From Candidatus Limnocylindrales bacterium (GTDB lineage: Bacteria > Chloroflexota > Limnocylindria > Limnocylindrales > CSP1-4): 61,245 bases of DNA. Of this stretch, positions 3,439 through 56,106 are shown in pieces. A model generated the notes under the pieces. The model made no database searches, was not told where the DNA came from, and saw only the letters and a list, made by a program, of their open reading frames with translations. The position numbers were made by a program, and so were the translations under genes. The first letter of the stretch is position 1, and each line of letters begins with the position of its first letter. The DNA lies in NCBI GenBank assembly GCA_035717865.1, contig DASTIE010000001.1:1-61245 (forward strand), read 5' to 3'.

Positions 3439-5790
3439 GTGCTCGCTGGGCGAGTCCGGTCCCCCGGACACGGCCGCGAGATCCTCCTCGTCCTCGACGT
3501 GGCTGAACCCGAACCGCGCCGCCAGCCGGCCGAGCGGGCCCGGCGCCCACCAGTTCCAGTCACCCAGGAGGCGCATCGTCGCGGGAACCAGCAGGACCCG
3601 GATGATCGTCGCGTCCAGCAGCACGGCGAGCGCCATGCCGACGCCGATGCTCTTGATCGTCACCGTATCGGCGAGGGCGAACGCCGCGAACACGGTGACC
3701 ATGATCAGCGCCGCGCCGGTGATCACCCCGGCGGTTCGAGCGAGCCCATCCGCCACGGCGGCGGCGTTGTCGCCGGTCCGGCGGTACGACTCCTGGATCC
3801 TCGACAGGAGCAGGACCTCGTAGTCCATGGACAGCCCGATGAGGGTCGCGAACATGATGATCGGGTTGCCGGCGATCGTGTACCCGAGCGGCTCGAAGCT
3901 GAGCAGCTCCCGGAGGTTGCCCTCCTGGAAGATCCAGACGAGCGCCCCGAAGCTCGCGGTGAGCGACAGCAGCGTCATCAGGACCGCCTTGATCGGGATC
4001 GCGAGGGACCCGAAGAGCAGGAACAGGATCAGCGCGGAGGCGAGCAGCGTCGTCCCCACGGCCCACGGGATTCGCTCGGACTGGCTGAGCAGGAAGTCCT
4101 CGCCGAGAGCGGCCCCGCCGCCGACCTGCATCCGCTCGATTGCGGCGGCGTCCAGGGCGACGCCACGGACCTTCGAGACCACCGCGGTTCCTTCGGGCTC
4201 CGAGGGGTTGAAGGAGCTGATCGCATCGAGCCGCACGGTGCCGTCGCGGAGGTACGCCTCGCGCAGGGCCGCCAGCGCCGCCGCGAGCTCCGGTGGCAGG
4301 GCCTCGGGCGACGCCGCGTAGGCCTGGGCCAGCTCGTCCGCGGTCATCGGCGCGCCGGTGGCCGGGTTCGGGAGCGAGAACGGCCCCTCCACCCGGTCGA
4401 TGCCCTCGACACCCTCGAGGCGATCCGCCACGGCGCTGACGGCGGCGATGGATTCCGCGGACACCTCGTCGCCCTTCGTGTCGAGCAGGACGATCACGGG
4501 CGTCGTCTCGCCGGCGCGGAACTCCGTCTGGAGCGCGACCCACGCGTCACGGCTCGGGACGCCCGCCGGCATGACCGTGGCGTCCGGGATGCCCTGCTTG
4601 AGCCCGAGGAACGGCGATCCCACGAGCAGCAGGAAGGCCAGCGTCGGCACGAGGACCGCGATGGGATGCCGCATCACCCAGTGGGCCACGGCCTCCCAGC
4701 GGGAGTGGCGCTCCGCGGCCGGGTCGTCGCGCCGCAACCCCAGCCGCCGCAGGAGCCCGGCGACGGACAGCGCGTTCACGCGATGCCCCAGCATGCCGAG
4801 GATCGCCGGCAGGAAGATGAGGCTGTAGAACACGGACGCGAGCACGACGATCGCCCCACCGAGCCCGATGGACGACAGGCCGCTGGCCTGGAACCACAGC
4901 AGCCCGGACAGGCCGATCGCGACGGCGATCCCCGAGAACAGCACGGCCTTCCCGGCGGTGCCGACGGCACGCTCCACGGCCTGCTCGACCGTTCGGCCGC
5001 GGCGCAGCTCCTCGCGGAAGCGGCTCGTCAGGAAGAGCGAGTAGTCGATCGCGAGCGCGAGGCCGAGCATCGTGGCGATGTTCAGGACGTAGATGCTCAT
5101 CTCGGTCTGCTGCGCGACGAGGTTGATGATCCCGACCGAGGTCGGGATCGCCAGCGCGGCGACGAGCAGCGGCATCCCGGCGGCGACGAGCGACCCGAAG
5201 ACGAGGATCAGGACGAGCGCCGCGATCGGGAGGGAGACGGTCTCCGCGCGCACGAGGTCGCTCTCGGACAGCTCCGCGGACGCCTGCTGGATCGGCCCGA
5301 AGCCCGTCAGCTGGGCGCTGTAGCCCCCCGGGAGCGCGCCCTCGATCGCGGCCTGCACCGGGTCGACCAGGTCGATCGAGCTGTCCTCGTCGAGGTCGAG
5401 GCCGATGACGACGTACGCGGCGTCGCCGGCCTTGCTGATGAATCGATCGTCAAGCGTCTCGGCGTAGCCCGTGACGCCGGTGATGCCCTCGATGTCCTCG
5501 ACCGGCGCGAGGGTGTCCGCGATGGCGCCCTGGAACGCGGCGGAGGTCGCGTCGGCGCCGGCTACGGTCGATCGGAAGAGCGCGATGAAGGCCGACCGGC
5601 CGCCGCCGAAGTCCGCCTCCAGCCGATCGGCGACCTGGGCAGATTCCGAGCCCGGGTCGAGCCAGCCGCCGGTCGAGAGGCTGTCCGCCGCGCCCTGGCC
5701 GAGCGCTCCGAAGCCCACGGCGATGACCACAGCGAGCATGGCGAGCCAGCGACGGCGGCGATAGACGAACGCGCCCCAGCGGGTGAACAA
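3421..5790 (-). CDS. MMPL/RND-superfamily transporter
   Basis: 789 aa with two 6-TM bundles, each preceded by a large soluble loop. Duplicated motifs ..DYSLFLTSRFREEL.. and ..DYEVLLLSRIQE... TTG start at 5790 preceded by GGAGGA. Confidence 0.85.
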   Translation of the reverse strand: MFTRWGAFVYRRRRWLAMLAVVIAVGFGALGQGAADSLSTGGWLDPGSESAQVADRLEADFGGGRSAFIALFRSTVAGADATSAAFQGAIADTLAPVEDIEGITGVTGYAETLDDRFISKAGDAAYVVIGLDLDEDSSIDLVDPVQAAIEGALPGGYSAQLTGFGPIQQASAELSESDLVRAETVSLPIAALVLILVFGSLVAAGMPLLVAALAIPTSVGIINLVAQQTEMSIYVLNIATMLGLALAIDYSLFLTSRFREELRRGRTVEQAVERAVGTAGKAVLFSGIAVAIGLSGLLWFQASGLSSIGLGGAIVVLASVFYSLIFLPAILGMLGHRVNALSVAGLLRRLGLRRDDPAAERHSRWEAVAHWVMRHPIAVLVPTLAFLLLVGSPFLGLKQGIPDATVMPAGVPSRDAWVALQTEFRAGETTPVIVLLDTKGDEVSAESIAAVSAVADRLEGVEGIDRVEGPFSLPNPATGAPMTADELAQAYAASPEALPPELAAALAALREAYLRDGTVRLDAISSFNPSEPEGTAVVSKVRGVALDAAAIERMQVGGGAALGEDFLLSQSERIPWAVGTTLLASALILFLLFGSLAIPIKAVLMTLLSLTASFGALVWIFQEGNLRELLSFEPLGYTIAGNPIIMFATLIGLSMDYEVLLLSRIQESYRRTGDNAAAVADGLARTAGVITGAALIMVTVFAAFALADTVTIKSIGVGMALAVLLDATIIRVLLVPATMRLLGDWNWWAPGPLGRLAARFGFSHVEDEEDLAAVSGGPDSPSEHAAAPA

Positions 5791-51384: not shown

Positions 51385-52578
51385 ATGAGCCAACCCACAG
51401 CCACTCGCGAGGAGGTCGACATCGTCACCCAGGATCGACCGCGCGTTCAGGGCGTCGGCGTGCGCGAGTGGCGCCCCCGCCCGACGCTCGCTGGTGCGGA
51501 CTACGCCAGCCAGGCGGTCTACGACGAGGAGCGCGAACGGCTCTTCCACGGCGGCTGGTTCTGCATCGGGCGCGCCGAGGAGGTCCCGGCAACCGGCAGC
51601 TACCTCGTCCGCGACGTGGCCGGCGAGTCCGTGTTCGTCGTGCGAAACCGCGACGGCGAGCTCCGGGCGTTCTACAACGTCTGCGCCCACCGCGGGACCA
51701 AGATCCTGGACGACGAGCCCGCCTGCGGCACGGTCGGCAAGGCCATCAAGTGCCCGTACCACGCCTGGTCCTACGACCTCGACGGCCGGCTCCTCGCCAC
51801 GCCGAACGTCCACGAGGACGAGCAGTTCGAGCGCGCCGAGTACCGGCTGAACGAGGTCGCCGTCGACGAGCGGGGCGGCTTCCTGTTCGTGTCGCTCGCG
51901 GACGAGCCGGGGAGCCTCGTCGACTGGCTGGGCAACAGCAACGAGACGATCCTCGACTTCGAACGCTACCGGCTGGGCGAGCTGCGCCTGGCGCGCCGCA
52001 TCACGTACGACGTTGCCGCGAACTGGAAGATCATCGTCGAGAACTACAACGAGTGCCTCCACTGCCCGCAGATCCACCCGGAGCTCGTCCAGGTCATCCC
52101 GCTGTACCGGAAGGGCGAGGTCTGGGACGGCGAGACGCGCGACGGCGGCAACGAGATGGCTCCCGGCGCGACCTCGTTCACCGCTACCGGCACCTCGGAC
52201 CTGCCGAAGTTCCCGGACCTCTTCGCCGAGGACTACGGCATGTACTACGGCGCCTTCCAGTTCCCGAACCTCATGGTCAACATGCACCCGGATTCGGTGA
52301 TGGCCTACCTCGTCTACCCGAACGGGCCCGCCCGAACCACGGTCGTCTCCGAGTTCTACTTCCGGCCGGAGGCACTGGCGCTCCCTAGCTTCGACCCGAG
52401 CCCGACGGTCGAGCTGTGGGACCTCATCAGCCGCCAGGACTGGCAGGTCTGCGAGCGCGCCCAGCTCGGGGTGTCTTCGCGCGGCTACAAGGGCGGCGTC
52501 TACCCGCGCAAGGACCGCCTGCTGTTCGACTTCAACGAGCGCTGGCGCGAGTCGATGGGGCGCCCCCTCGTCGGCTAG
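51385..52578 (+). CDS. Rieske non-heme-iron aromatic-ring-hydroxylating oxygenase, alpha subunit
   Basis: ORF 51316..52578 trimmed to the ATG at 51385. Rieske motifs ..CAHRG.. and ..CPYHAW... Mononuclear iron region ..NYNECLHCPQIHPEL... Confidence 0.85.
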   Translation: MSQPTATREEVDIVTQDRPRVQGVGVREWRPRPTLAGADYASQAVYDEERERLFHGGWFCIGRAEEVPATGSYLVRDVAGESVFVVRNRDGELRAFYNVCAHRGTKILDDEPACGTVGKAIKCPYHAWSYDLDGRLLATPNVHEDEQFERAEYRLNEVAVDERGGFLFVSLADEPGSLVDWLGNSNETILDFERYRLGELRLARRITYDVAANWKIIVENYNECLHCPQIHPELVQVIPLYRKGEVWDGETRDGGNEMAPGATSFTATGTSDLPKFPDLFAEDYGMYYGAFQFPNLMVNMHPDSVMAYLVYPNGPARTTVVSEFYFRPEALALPSFDPSPTVELWDLISRQDWQVCERAQLGVSSRGYKGGVYPRKDRLLFDFNERWRESMGRPLVG

Positions 52579-53348
52579 GCGGCCGGCAGCCGTCGGAACA
52601 CGAGGAGGGCCAGGTCGTCGGCGGGTTGCGCCGATCCCTGGAACGCCAGCACCGACTGGATGACCGAACGAGCGGTGTCCTCGGCGGTGTCAGCGACGCC
52701 GCATTCCGTGATCTTCGAGAAGAGGCGCAGGTCACCGAACCGGGACCCGTCCGGCGCCGCGGCGTCGGTGATGCCGTCCGTGTACAGCACGATTCGCTCC
52801 CCGGGCTTGATCTCGAGGCGCTGGAGGGTCAGGTCCAGCCTGCCGAAGACTCCGAGGAGCGGCCCCGCGCCCTCGACCCACGTGGGATCAGAGCCGTCCG
52901 GACGGGCGAGCAGCGGCCGTTCGTGTCCGGCATTCGCGTACTCGAGGACGCCCGTGTCCAGGTCGAGGACGCCGCACAGGACCGTGATGAAGAGGCCCGT
53001 GCGCCGCTCGTTGACGAGGATGCCGTTCGTGAGCTCCAGCGCCTGCACGGGGTCGCCGGAACGGTCGAGTGCGGAGCGCAGCACGGCCCGCGCGAAGGCC
53101 ATCATCACGGCCGCGGCGATGCCCTTTCCGGACACGTCCGCGATGACGATGCCGAGGTGCCGCGGCCGGTCCGGATCGAGCAGCGGGAAGACGTCGAAGA
53201 AGTCGCCGCCGATCGATCGCGCGGGCCGGTAGTCGCTCGCGATCTCCCAGCCGTCCGCCTCGACTCCCGCGAGCAGGACGAGGGTGCGCTGGATCCGCTG
53301 GGCGACCTGGAGCTCGCGCTCGAGGAGCTCCGCGTCGGAGGTCGTCGG
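52575..53348 (-). CDS. PP2C/SpoIIE-type serine phosphatase domain with no start codon of its own (in-frame continuation of the upstream ORF after TGA)
   Basis: My translation of 53348..53136 gives PTTSDAELLERELQVAQRIQRTLVLLAGVEADGWEIASDYRPARSIGGDFFDVFPLLDPDRPRHLGIVIAD, then VSGKGIAAAVMM... There is no ATG, GTG or TTG between the TGA (53349..53351) and the GTG at 53135. That GTG would delete the GGDFFD metal-binding segment. Confidence 0.6.
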   Translation of the reverse strand, partial: PTTSDAELLERELQVAQRIQRTLVLLAGVEADGWEIASDYRPARSIGGDFFDVFPLLDPDRPRHLGIVIADVSGKGIAAAVMMAFARAVLRSALDRSGDPVQALELTNGILVNERRTGLFITVLCGVLDLDTGVLEYANAGHERPLLARPDGSDPTWVEGAGPLLGVFGRLDLTLQRLEIKPGERIVLYTDGITDAAAPDGSRFGDLRLFSKITECGVADTAEDTARSVIQSVLAFQGSAQPADDLALLVFRRLPAA

Positions 53349-54239
53349 TCAGGCTCCCTGCAGCGCGGCGACGGCGCTGCTCCGATCGGCATCGATCGGA
53401 AAGAGCCTGCCGATGCCGGTTCGCTCCAGGACGCGCGCGATCGCCTCCTGCGGCGCGGCGAGGCGGACGGTGGCCGCCTCGCCCTCCTGGTCGCCGGCAA
53501 CTTCGTGGAGCGCGCCCCAGCCGGCCTCTGGATCCGGCGGCGTCTCGCCGCGCATGATGCGGAACGCCGAGTGGAGGGCGAAGAGGCCGGAGCTGGCCAT
53601 GAAGCCGAGCTTCGACAGATCGACGACGAGCCCGCGGGCGCCGCGCGCGTAGGCCTCGCGGACGGCCTCGATGACGCGCTCGTAGTTCGAGGCGTCGAGC
53701 TCCCCGTCGAGCGCGAGGACGCTGACGGCCGGCGACCCGCCGAGGTCCTCGACATCGATCGTCATCGCCATCGGTCTGTCCTCCTCGGCCGGGTTGTCGT
53801 CGATCGAGCGGACGAGCGTCAGCTCGTTGCCGCCGCCGGGACGGACATGATGCCGCACCGCATCGGTCATCGTTCGAGCGAGATGCAGCCCCACGCCCGC
53901 GTTGCCGGGCCGGCGGGGCGCGCGCCCCCCGGGGTCGGCGAGCACGGTGGGGTCGAACGCGGGTGCCCGATCCAGGATCCTGATCTCGATCGATCCATCG
54001 CGGAGCGCCGCCTGGACCTCGATCTCGCCGGGCTTGCCGTCGTAGCCATGGAGCATGACGTTGCACGTCACCTCGTCGACCGCCTGCACGAGGTCCTCCG
54101 CGGCACGCTTCGAGCCGCCGAAGGCATGGACCGCATCGCGAACGAAGGCGCGCACCTCGGCGAGCCGGTCGACGTGGGCCTCCACGGCGAGGCGCAGCGG
54201 TGGGGCGGAGGCGGTGGCCTGGCCGCCCGCACGGGTCAT
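53349..54239 (-). CDS. Fusion of an RsbW-like anti-sigma serine kinase (HATPase) and a STAS (anti-sigma antagonist) domain
   Basis: ORF 53349..54416 trimmed to the ATG at 54239 (ATGA overlap with the VOC stop). Kinase part ..DEVTCNVMLHGY.., ..EIRILDRAPAFDP.., ..GVGLHLARTM... STAS part ..VVDLSKLGFMASSGL... Confidence 0.75.
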   Translation of the reverse strand: MTRAGGQATASAPPLRLAVEAHVDRLAEVRAFVRDAVHAFGGSKRAAEDLVQAVDEVTCNVMLHGYDGKPGEIEVQAALRDGSIEIRILDRAPAFDPTVLADPGGRAPRRPGNAGVGLHLARTMTDAVRHHVRPGGGNELTLVRSIDDNPAEEDRPMAMTIDVEDLGGSPAVSVLALDGELDASNYERVIEAVREAYARGARGLVVDLSKLGFMASSGLFALHSAFRIMRGETPPDPEAGWGALHEVAGDQEGEAATVRLAAPQEAIARVLERTGIGRLFPIDADRSSAVAALQGA

Positions 54240-54697
54240 GACCACGCCTGCAGCTCGACGATGTTGCCGTCCGGATCGGTCGCGTAGCACCACGTGACCT
54301 GGCGGCCCGCCGCCGTCGTGGTCGTGACGATGTCGCCGACGCGGCCGCCTCCCGCAGCCAGGACGACATCGAGGGCGGCCGGCACATCGGGAACCTGGAA
54401 CGCCACGTGGCCCCATCCGGCGCGATCGACCCGCGCCTCGCGCGCGGGCTCGACGCTGTCGTACTGAAAGATCTCGATCGTCGGACCCTCGGGCCCGTAG
54501 CCAGGCAGCCGCAGGTGTGCGCCGGTGAGATGGGCGCCCGTCACGCCGGTTGCGCGATCCAGGTGCGGGCCGGAGATGTCGCGCTCCGGCGGAACGAGCT
54601 CGCAGCCGAAGACATCGGTGTAGAAGCGCGCGAGGCGACGCCAGTCGGCGCCCGTCACGTTGACGTGCCCGAACCGCGCGCCGTCGATCCTTGCCAC
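54236..54697 (-). CDS. VOC (glyoxalase/bleomycin-resistance/dioxygenase) family protein
   Basis: Only the C-terminal ~153 codons of ORF 54236..56311 are credible: ..FGHVNVTGADWRRLARFYTDVFG.., ..GWGHVAFQV.., ..DPDGNIVELQ... The GTG start at 54697 is tentative. Confidence 0.65.
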   Translation of the reverse strand: MARIDGARFGHVNVTGADWRRLARFYTDVFGCELVPPERDISGPHLDRATGVTGAHLTGAHLRLPGYGPEGPTIEIFQYDSVEPAREARVDRAGWGHVAFQVPDVPAALDVVLAAGGGRVGDIVTTTTAAGRQVTWCYATDPDGNIVELQAWS

Positions 54698-54711
54698 CCA
54701 GGTGGAGGCCG

Positions 54712-56106
<1,395 letters not shown>

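Follow-up and report, generated by a model that had tools for sequence, protein, structure and literature searches.

Introduction

In the partner-switching systems RsbW-RsbV-RsbU and SpoIIAB-SpoIIAA-SpoIIE of Firmicutes and Actinobacteria, a serine kinase, a STAS protein and a PP2C phosphatase are encoded together, and the multidomain regulator Rv1364c of Mycobacterium tuberculosis (PDB 3KE6) combines the same three activities in one polypeptide with the order sensor-PP2C-kinase-STAS. Here we describe a locus with these three domain families in a stretch of 61,245 nucleotides (nt) (contig DASTIE010000001.1, hereafter the window) from a Candidatus Limnocylindrales bacterium, an uncultured soil member of the high-GC Candidatus Limnocylindria group of the Chloroflexota. 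On its minus strand, a kinase-STAS open reading frame (ORF) is followed by a PP2C/SpoIIE frame that lies in phase past a TGA stop (53351..53349) and has no canonical start codon near its beginning. Comparison with related loci leads us to propose that the phosphatase is probably a separate and translationally coupled gene that initiates at an ACG codon (53345..53343).

Two described forms of initiation bear on this proposal. The infC gene, encoding initiation factor 3 (IF3), has a conserved weak non-AUG start codon, AUU. The locus described here resembles it in that a near-cognate codon in a regulatory gene appears to set the reading frame, to be kept by selection behind a normal Shine-Dalgarno (SD) element and to be swapped for canonical codons in some relatives, but ACG differs from AUU in mismatching the initiator anticodon at the middle base. 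In gene pairs coupled by termination-reinitiation, as here, the SD element is embedded in the final codons of the upstream gene and the stop stands between it and the next start, with a spacer of 2-5 nt; unlike in the known pairs, the restart codon here would be ACG and not AUG, GUG or UUG. The conserved ACG is in this sense a variant of known non-canonical, coupled initiation.

Results and Discussion

An RsbW/RsbV/RsbU-like operon and its native internal stop

The locus is an rsbW/rsbV/rsbU-like partner-switching operon that encodes an anti-sigma-type serine kinase, a STAS phospho-acceptor and a PP2C phosphatase. An earlier note on this DNA, made from the letters alone, had placed a HATPase_c_2, a STAS and a SpoIIE domain here in one phase interrupted by TGA 53351..53349; this layout is present in the sequence, and a Pfam search bore out the three domain calls. 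The kinase-STAS gene (53349..54239, minus strand, 296 residues plus TGA) starts at ATG 54239, which overlaps the stop of an upstream glyoxalase-type gene as ATGA, and the ORF 53349..54416 is only the maximal one. An RsbW-like HATPase_c_2 domain (PF13581, E=1.4e-21) occupies residues 20-143 (about 53811..54182), with an RsbV-like STAS domain (PF01740, E=4.2e-13) fused behind it. The loop ..DLSKLGFMASSGL.. with a candidate phosphorylatable serine is identical in the window STAS and in P0007, a 307-residue kinase-STAS protein that is 54% identical to that of the window (MAFFT alignment; 55% by BLASTP); the exact kinase-STAS protein of the window was not on record in an exact-protein look-up. The third gene (52575..53345, minus strand, 256 codons plus TAG) encodes an RsbU-like PP2C/SpoIIE phosphatase. 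The STAS serine in the ..FMASSGL.. loop and the GGDF.D and DVSG.G motifs of the PP2C domain are shared with RsbW-RsbV-RsbU and SpoIIAB-SpoIIAA-SpoIIE. Unlike in these systems, the immediate neighbors of the module include no obvious sigma factor or other output partner, kinase and STAS are fused in the window, and the phosphatase has neither an N-terminal sensor domain nor a canonical start codon. The operon is otherwise an ordinary partner-switching one, and its unusual part is the start codon of the phosphatase.

Judged by comparison with relatives, the TGA between STAS and PP2C is the native stop of the kinase-STAS gene, because P0007 and all relatives found by tblastn end at the same C-terminal position. 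The C terminus of P0007 (..AVAALEAG) coincides exactly with the end of the window protein (..AVAALQGA*), and the tblastn relatives all terminate at ..AVAAL(Q/E)G(A/G)*. The stop is TAG instead of TGA in loci L016 and L050, and a sense codon was found at this position in no relative. An alignment of orthologous loci, which had been suggested as a means of telling a sense codon from a conserved TGA or a gene boundary with a start codon, returned a gene boundary, although one with a canonical start in only some of the relatives. The closest database proteins to the locus are not three-domain chains, and the arrangement departs from that of Rv1364c both in its order, kinase-STAS-PP2C, and in that the three domains do not form one uninterrupted chain, the phosphatase being a separate gene behind a native and conserved stop.

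A start-less segment encoding catalytic residues

Between TGA 53351..53349 and GTG 53135 (53133..53135), the first canonical start in the phosphatase frame and the one chosen by gene callers, the frame stays open for 71 sense codons, none of which is ATG, GTG or TTG (the 72 counted previously included the TGA itself). They encode an N-terminal helix, ELLERELQVAQRIQRTLV, and then reach the metal-binding motifs GGDFFD and ADVSGKG. GGDFFD and the Asp of ADVSGKG both lie upstream of GTG 53135, in agreement with the earlier view that this segment is indispensable to the phosphatase. With the 71 codons included, the SpoIIE domain (PF07228) is recognized at E=1.6e-49, and the Pfam match starts some 10 residues ahead of GTG 53135. 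The structure 3ES2/3F79 aligns to phosphatase residues 5-251, N-terminal helix included, such that GGDFFD and ADVSGKG fall on SGDFVD and ADVSGHG of 3ES2, and Rv1364c (3KE6), the best sequence match in PDB, aligns to residues 30-195 (E=1.1e-13).

The GC content of the start-less segment at codon positions 1, 2 and 3 is 0.77, 0.44 and 0.96, a coding signature. In pairwise comparisons of the 70 codons behind the ACG, the three positions show 0.13, 0.12 and 0.32 differences per site (values slightly inflated by an ungapped indel near codon 55), and among relatives the third position varies 2.6 times more than the first or second. Because of this coding signature and the third-position bias of the differences, we regard the start-less codons as translated and under purifying selection. 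GTG 53135 is not the real start: it is the Val codon of ADVSGKG, and both metal-binding Asp motifs come before it. It is also unconserved, reading GTC in locus L002, where the gene caller used a later ATG. In a composition screen, the phosphatase was the only one of the 37 coding-like ORFs of the window in which a long stretch of coding-like sequence preceded the first canonical start.

A conserved ACG at the expected start position

Genome and metagenome scans yielded 160 loci, mostly from Candidatus Limnocylindria (Chloroflexota) metagenome-assembled genomes and soil contigs. Loci with at least about 55% kinase-STAS identity to the window and the phosphatase directly behind the stop are referred to as the ACG clade; frame and ACG position were counted in 36 loci, and frame changes were placed on a neighbor-joining tree of the STAS domain. 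Codon invariance was assessed in 28 non-redundant sequences, the SD element in 30 non-redundant loci and the hairpin discussed below in 34 distinct junctions. The junction arrangement recurs in dozens of independent assemblies and is not a matter of chance. Most clade loci are devoid of canonical starts from the upstream in-frame stop up to the conserved helix ELxxAxRIQ.

An ACG in the phosphatase frame is present in 36 of 36 loci, at 5-8 nt counted from the first nucleotide of the stop, which leaves a spacer of 2-5 nt. The offset is 6 in 25 loci, 7 in six, 5 in four and 8 in one, and all three frames are represented: relative to the stop, the phosphatase is in frame 0 in 25 loci, in +1 in six and in +2 in five, a distribution that requires at least eight independent frame changes on the STAS tree. 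The closest relative, L083 (88% identical), is itself out of frame (TGA-CG-ACG ACC TTC GAC), and in L083 and L037 an ACG overlaps the TGA. The spacer between stop and start, CCG in the window (53346..53348, minus strand), appears to be non-coding. Relatives have CCG, CCC, GCG, TCC or TTG where it is 3 nt long and CC, CG, AG, CCCC, TCGG, GCCG, TCCG or CCGAC where it is 2, 4 or 5 nt long. Spacer length thus shifts by non-multiples of three and the length downstream of the ACG only by whole codons, which argues that the reading frame is set at the ACG.

The ACG is also invariant as a codon, in 28 of 28 sequences, whereas only one of 48 other amino-acid-invariant four-fold columns in the same genes is codon-invariant; the four other columns of invariant Thr switch between ACC and ACG, with 23-69% ACG. 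The four residues behind it are hypervariable (TSDA, ATDG, PTDA, HPDA, VLDA), as expected of a free N-terminal tail. Some relatives carry a canonical codon at or near the same place. L085 has ATG at the aligned position (ATG-ACG-TTC-GAC-CCC-GAG against ACG-ACC-TTC-GAC-GCC-GAG in L083), and the N terminus of L007, M-IPDP-ELLERE, is equal in length to that of the window, [ACG]-TSDA-ELLERE. An ATG stands at +13 in L007 and L010 and a GTG at -5 in L015, and L163 (P0005) reads TGA TTG ACG. In L164 (P0001) an ACG stands at +7 in the phosphatase frame, and L001 (P0002) has CTG at +7.

The last STAS codons of the window, ..CAG GGA GCC TGA, contain an SD-like GGGAG (53354..53358, minus strand) 8 nt upstream of the ACG, and the same codons, CAG GGA GCC, give GGGAG 8 nt before ACG in most loci. 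In 28 of the 30 loci, the final 12 nt of the STAS ORF include a purine-rich SD core. The penultimate STAS codon is GGA in 23 of 30, against a background in which GGA makes up 5% of the Gly codons of these genes, and for this reason the SD element is judged to be under selection at the nucleotide level. The genes are packed head to tail, and the junction form is SD, stop, 2 to 5 nt, start. With an SD element at a suitable distance inside the upstream ORF and the stop 3 nt before the ACG, the junction has the anatomy of translational coupling, except that no ATG, GTG or TTG follows for 71 codons and ACG occupies the position expected of a canonical restart codon. Of the explanations put forward in the earlier note, non-canonical initiation of the phosphatase is the one that these data support, with an invariant ACG that follows a selected SD at about 8 nt.

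Loci with less than 55% identity have a phosphatase with an N-terminal sensor domain of about 110 residues and ordinary starts, so that the ACG state is a derived one. We consider it likely, with slightly less confidence than attaches to the coupled gene itself, that ACG is a genuine, positively maintained bacterial initiation codon and that a Candidatus Limnocylindria clade, reaching down to about 55% kinase-STAS identity, starts its RsbU-like phosphatase at SD-N8-ACG directly behind the upstream stop.

The kinase/STAS junction as an internal control

The first junction of the operon offers a comparison within the same operon. Kinase and STAS are fused in only 16 of 50 loci, and in 13 relatives an in-frame stop inside the kinase-STAS stretch defined by tblastn marks the kinase/STAS gene boundary. 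This boundary reads ..AAG GAG GGC TGA CCG ATG GCG ATG ACG.., that is, an SD, a TGA, a 3-nt spacer and an in-frame ATG (or GTG). The general form is GGAGG-N2-TGA-NNN-ATG, usually in frame, with the same SD-to-start distance of 8 nt as at the ACG junction. Because the kinase/STAS junction is built in this way with ATG, an in-frame SD-stop-NNN-start can be taken as the normal junction design of the operon, and the STAS/phosphatase junction differs from it only by ACG in place of ATG.

In the window, a relic of this gene junction is retained at 53769..53786 (minus strand) by comparison with relatives such as L083. The relatives read ..GAGGAGGGC TGA CCG ATG GCG ATG ACG.. (for example L083) where the window reads GAGGAGGAC AGA CCG ATG GCG ATG ACG (GAG GAG GAC AGA CCG ATG); its parts are the SD GAGGAG (53786..53781), GAC, AGA (53777..53775), CCG and ATG (53771..53769). 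Most relatives have TGA in place of this AGA, and in relatives the ATG is the start codon of STAS. L083 keeps a TGA at the boundary where the window has AGA. The kinase-STAS fusion of the window is thus a derived stop-to-sense change, from TGA to the rare Arg codon AGA, and no multidomain design of ancestral origin. Despite the fusion, the old SD GAGGAG and the STAS ATG 53771..53769 are intact, so free STAS might still be made by internal initiation beside the fused protein. The frame of this junction drifts in parallel with that of the STAS/phosphatase junction: the kinase is in a frame other than STAS in the close relatives L046, L025, L040, L095, L029, L037 and L041, and in L163 the kinase/STAS spacer is 1 nt (TGA C ATG).

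Proposed mechanism and points against it

In the mechanism we propose, translation of kinase-STAS would end at TGA 53351..53349, and ribosomes positioned by GGGAG 53358..53354 would begin the phosphatase at the ACG 8 nt downstream, where fMet-tRNA would presumably mispair at the middle base and Met would be the first residue. The initiating ribosomes would probably be those that have just terminated 3 nt upstream (termination-reinitiation), or else newly recruited 30S subunits. The outcome would be a phosphatase output that is strictly tied to kinase-STAS translation and likely to be low, because ACG is a poor initiator, an arrangement with a possible stoichiometric rationale. ACG does initiate translation in Escherichia coli reporters, where mass spectrometry verified Met at the N terminus (Hecht et al., 10.1101/063800).

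Several points weigh against initiation at ACG. It is a weak initiator in E. coli, and the starts annotated in model genomes are only ATG, GTG, TTG, CTG, ATT, ATC and ATA (Hecht et al., 10.1101/063800). In other bacterial studies the change of AUG to ACG is a routine start knock-out, and expression from the ACG might be very low. We found no natural bacterial ACG start in the literature searched, where absence is no proof, and for bacteria ACG was met there only in engineered reporters and as a start knock-out; the natural ACG starts described are in plant organelles (with C-to-U editing), adeno-associated virus and other eukaryotic viruses, and eukaryotic genes. Two loci have neither a canonical start nor an in-frame ACG. 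In L002 (6922-6960) the candidates are an ATC at +8 or a CTG overlapping the TGA (-1), and in L016 (about 3838-3910), with its TAG stop, there is only a CTG at +18. The frame +2 loci also hold an in-frame CTG overlapping the TGA, but just 1 nt from the SD. Finally, traces of a three-domain kinase-STAS-PP2C chain may be made as a minor readthrough product in the in-frame UGA-C loci (25/36).

L002, a 76-kb contig and the source of P0007, has its phosphatase in the -1 frame relative to the stop. Its nearest canonical in-frame start is a GTG 328 nt inside STAS (-328), and a start there would encode Arg-rich out-of-frame junk.

Alternative explanations

Programmed readthrough of TGA 53351..53349 would yield a kinase-STAS-PP2C chain of about 60 kDa as the functional phosphatase product, the self-contained three-domain protein envisaged in the earlier note. 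UGA followed by C is the leakiest stop context, and 25 of 36 loci have the stop in frame, usually with C after it. The Chloroflexota also have single-chain HATPase_c_2-GAF-SpoIIE proteins (P0057-type, 568 residues) with the same order, kinase first and PP2C last, and the first junction of this very operon has been fused in the window by a stop-to-sense change. The P0057-type proteins are 27% identical over 96% of the concatenated query; unlike the locus, they have GAF and not STAS as the middle domain and are true uninterrupted ORFs, such that by analogy they would make a fusion feasible in principle and are no evidence of fusion at this locus. (P0057-P0061 and similar proteins are genuine single chains of about 568 residues, and P0062 has the reverse order, SpoIIE then HATPase_c_2.) The frame is not kept across orthologues, 11 of 36 loci being out of frame through the independent changes described above, with L083 among them. 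TAG replaces TGA in L016 and L050, no relative has a sense codon at the stop, and neither the sequence nor the length of the spacer is conserved on the 3' side. The in-frame 3-nt spacer is also the commonest at the kinase/STAS junction, where it precedes a normal ATG, and readthrough leaves the invariant ACG and the selected SD unexplained. On the variation of frame, the out-of-frame position of L083, the TAG stops and the missing sense codon, obligatory readthrough is untenable, and programmed readthrough as the source of the functional phosphatase is improbable.

The 3' structure that might have assisted readthrough fares no better. The inverted repeat GGAGCTC-N9-GAGCTCC reported previously is present at 53331..53309 (minus strand), and the earlier suspicion that it is coincidental was well founded: all seven pairs are kept in just 2 of 34 distinct junctions. 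Its 3' arm coincides with the GAG CTC C of the helix, which hardly varies, and where the 5' arm has changed, pairs are lost with no compensation. No RNA family, SECIS (selenocysteine insertion sequence) included, matched the junction in Rfam at E<=1. The hairpin is thus best read as a by-product of repeated GAG-CTC (Glu-Leu) codons and not as a conserved structure.

We give the same low probability to initiation at another near-cognate codon, either the CTG that overlaps the TGA (CTGA) in frame +2 loci or, in the window, a downstream CTG or the ATC of RIQ. CTG and ATC, like ATT and ATA, belong to the alternative starts of translation table 11, from which ACG is absent. The overlapping CTG is in frame in L002, L009, L037, L046, L083 and L084, and there is a CTG at +7 in L001 and an ATC at +8 in L002. 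In the window and 30 other loci of frame 0 or +1, however, the overlapping CTG is out of frame, and it lies 1 nt from the SD. The window offers no further near-cognate codon before an ATC that is codon 19 counted from the stop and codon 17 counted from the ACG, already inside the conserved helix, and the invariance of ACG would again go unexplained.

Decoding of the ACG by special means, through C-to-U editing to AUG in the mRNA or a dedicated initiator-like tRNA with a CGU anticodon, is less probable still than either of these. Plant-organelle ACG starts become AUG by C-to-U editing, and strict conservation of the codon fits both mechanisms. We know of no C-to-U editing of start codons in bacterial mRNA, there is no tRNA gene in the window, and the single start-less gene among the 37 coding-like ORFs of the window argues against a general system.

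Further explanations, a decaying pseudogene, an assembly error in the TGA or frame, or a truncated protein made from GTG 53135, have as little to recommend them. Gene callers do give 5'-truncated products. The recent nonsense pseudogene proposed in the earlier note is contradicted by a stop that stands at the native C terminus in all relatives and by purifying selection on the 70 codons upstream of GTG 53135, and the sequencing error proposed there by the presence of this junction in more than 36 independent assemblies. A product from the unconserved GTG 53135 (GTC in L002) would lack GGDFFD and the Asp of ADVSGKG. Comparative data have already refuted this group of explanations, and its residual probability is slight. 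Selenocysteine insertion, suggested by the in-frame UGA of the window and the 7-bp hairpin that lies 18 nt behind it, can be dismissed as next to impossible given the TAG stops of two relatives, the 11 out-of-frame loci, an unconserved hairpin with no Rfam SECIS match, and a position at the C terminus of the upstream protein that is no catalytic Cys site.

Two further candidates were rejected. A 1-nt indel from an L001-type arrangement was considered because the +1 frame of the window, MPIGAAPSPRCREPD.., resembles the N terminus of P0002, but this similarity is that of an overlapping STAS reading. P0027 (458 residues, STAS plus SpoIIE) was considered as a true fusion; its Arg/Pro-rich middle reads like an out-of-frame STAS C terminus plus linker, and it is probably an assembly frameshift.

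Implications

If the proposed initiation at ACG is correct, it would extend the accepted set of bacterial start codons by one that bacterial gene finders and the standard code table disallow and that is used, in AUG-to-ACG changes, as a null allele. The junction would then be a natural model for initiation with a middle-base mismatch or for termination-reinitiation, and a natural substrate for asking how IF3 proofreading is bypassed, possibly through adjacent termination. For compact operons more widely, an in-frame stop with a start-less ORF behind it can reflect an ordinary gene junction and not recoding, and in-frame junctions let one point mutation fuse neighbors, as with kinase and STAS in the window. 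The feature is limited to a single gene family of uncultured bacteria.

Gene calls and neighborhood

The public gene calls that we encountered for the phosphatase family are all wrong, being either truncated (L002 7173-7688) or over-extended (L001 596-1795, P0002; L164 750-1751, P0001). The 5'-truncated calls have 171-186 residues (186 in the window, 171 in L002) and lack the catalytic Asp motifs. The over-extended ones, P0001 and P0002, begin at a fortuitous ATG at -41, a by-product of STAS Asp-Ala/Val codons (GAT GCx or GAT GTC) that is in the phosphatase frame only in some frame +1 loci. In P0002 (L001, an ENA contig; 399 residues) the C-terminal third matches polyphosphate kinase (PF13090), which replaces the SpoIIE end, and this protein, on a 1.9-kb contig, looks like the product of a chimeric assembly or rearrangement.

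The module lies directly downstream of dihydropyrimidinase/hydantoinase and glyoxalase/VOC genes (54236..56106, minus strand). The same dihydropyrimidinase-glyoxalase-kinase-STAS-SpoIIE synteny is found in L002 (4135-6004), where it is kept at 55% identity, and this conservation hints at co-expression with a pyrimidine- or hydantoin-catabolic cluster. The overlap of the glyoxalase and kinase genes is ATGA in the window and GTGA in L002, and the L002 neighborhood also holds a CN_hydrolase, an aminotransferase and a luciferase-like oxidoreductase.

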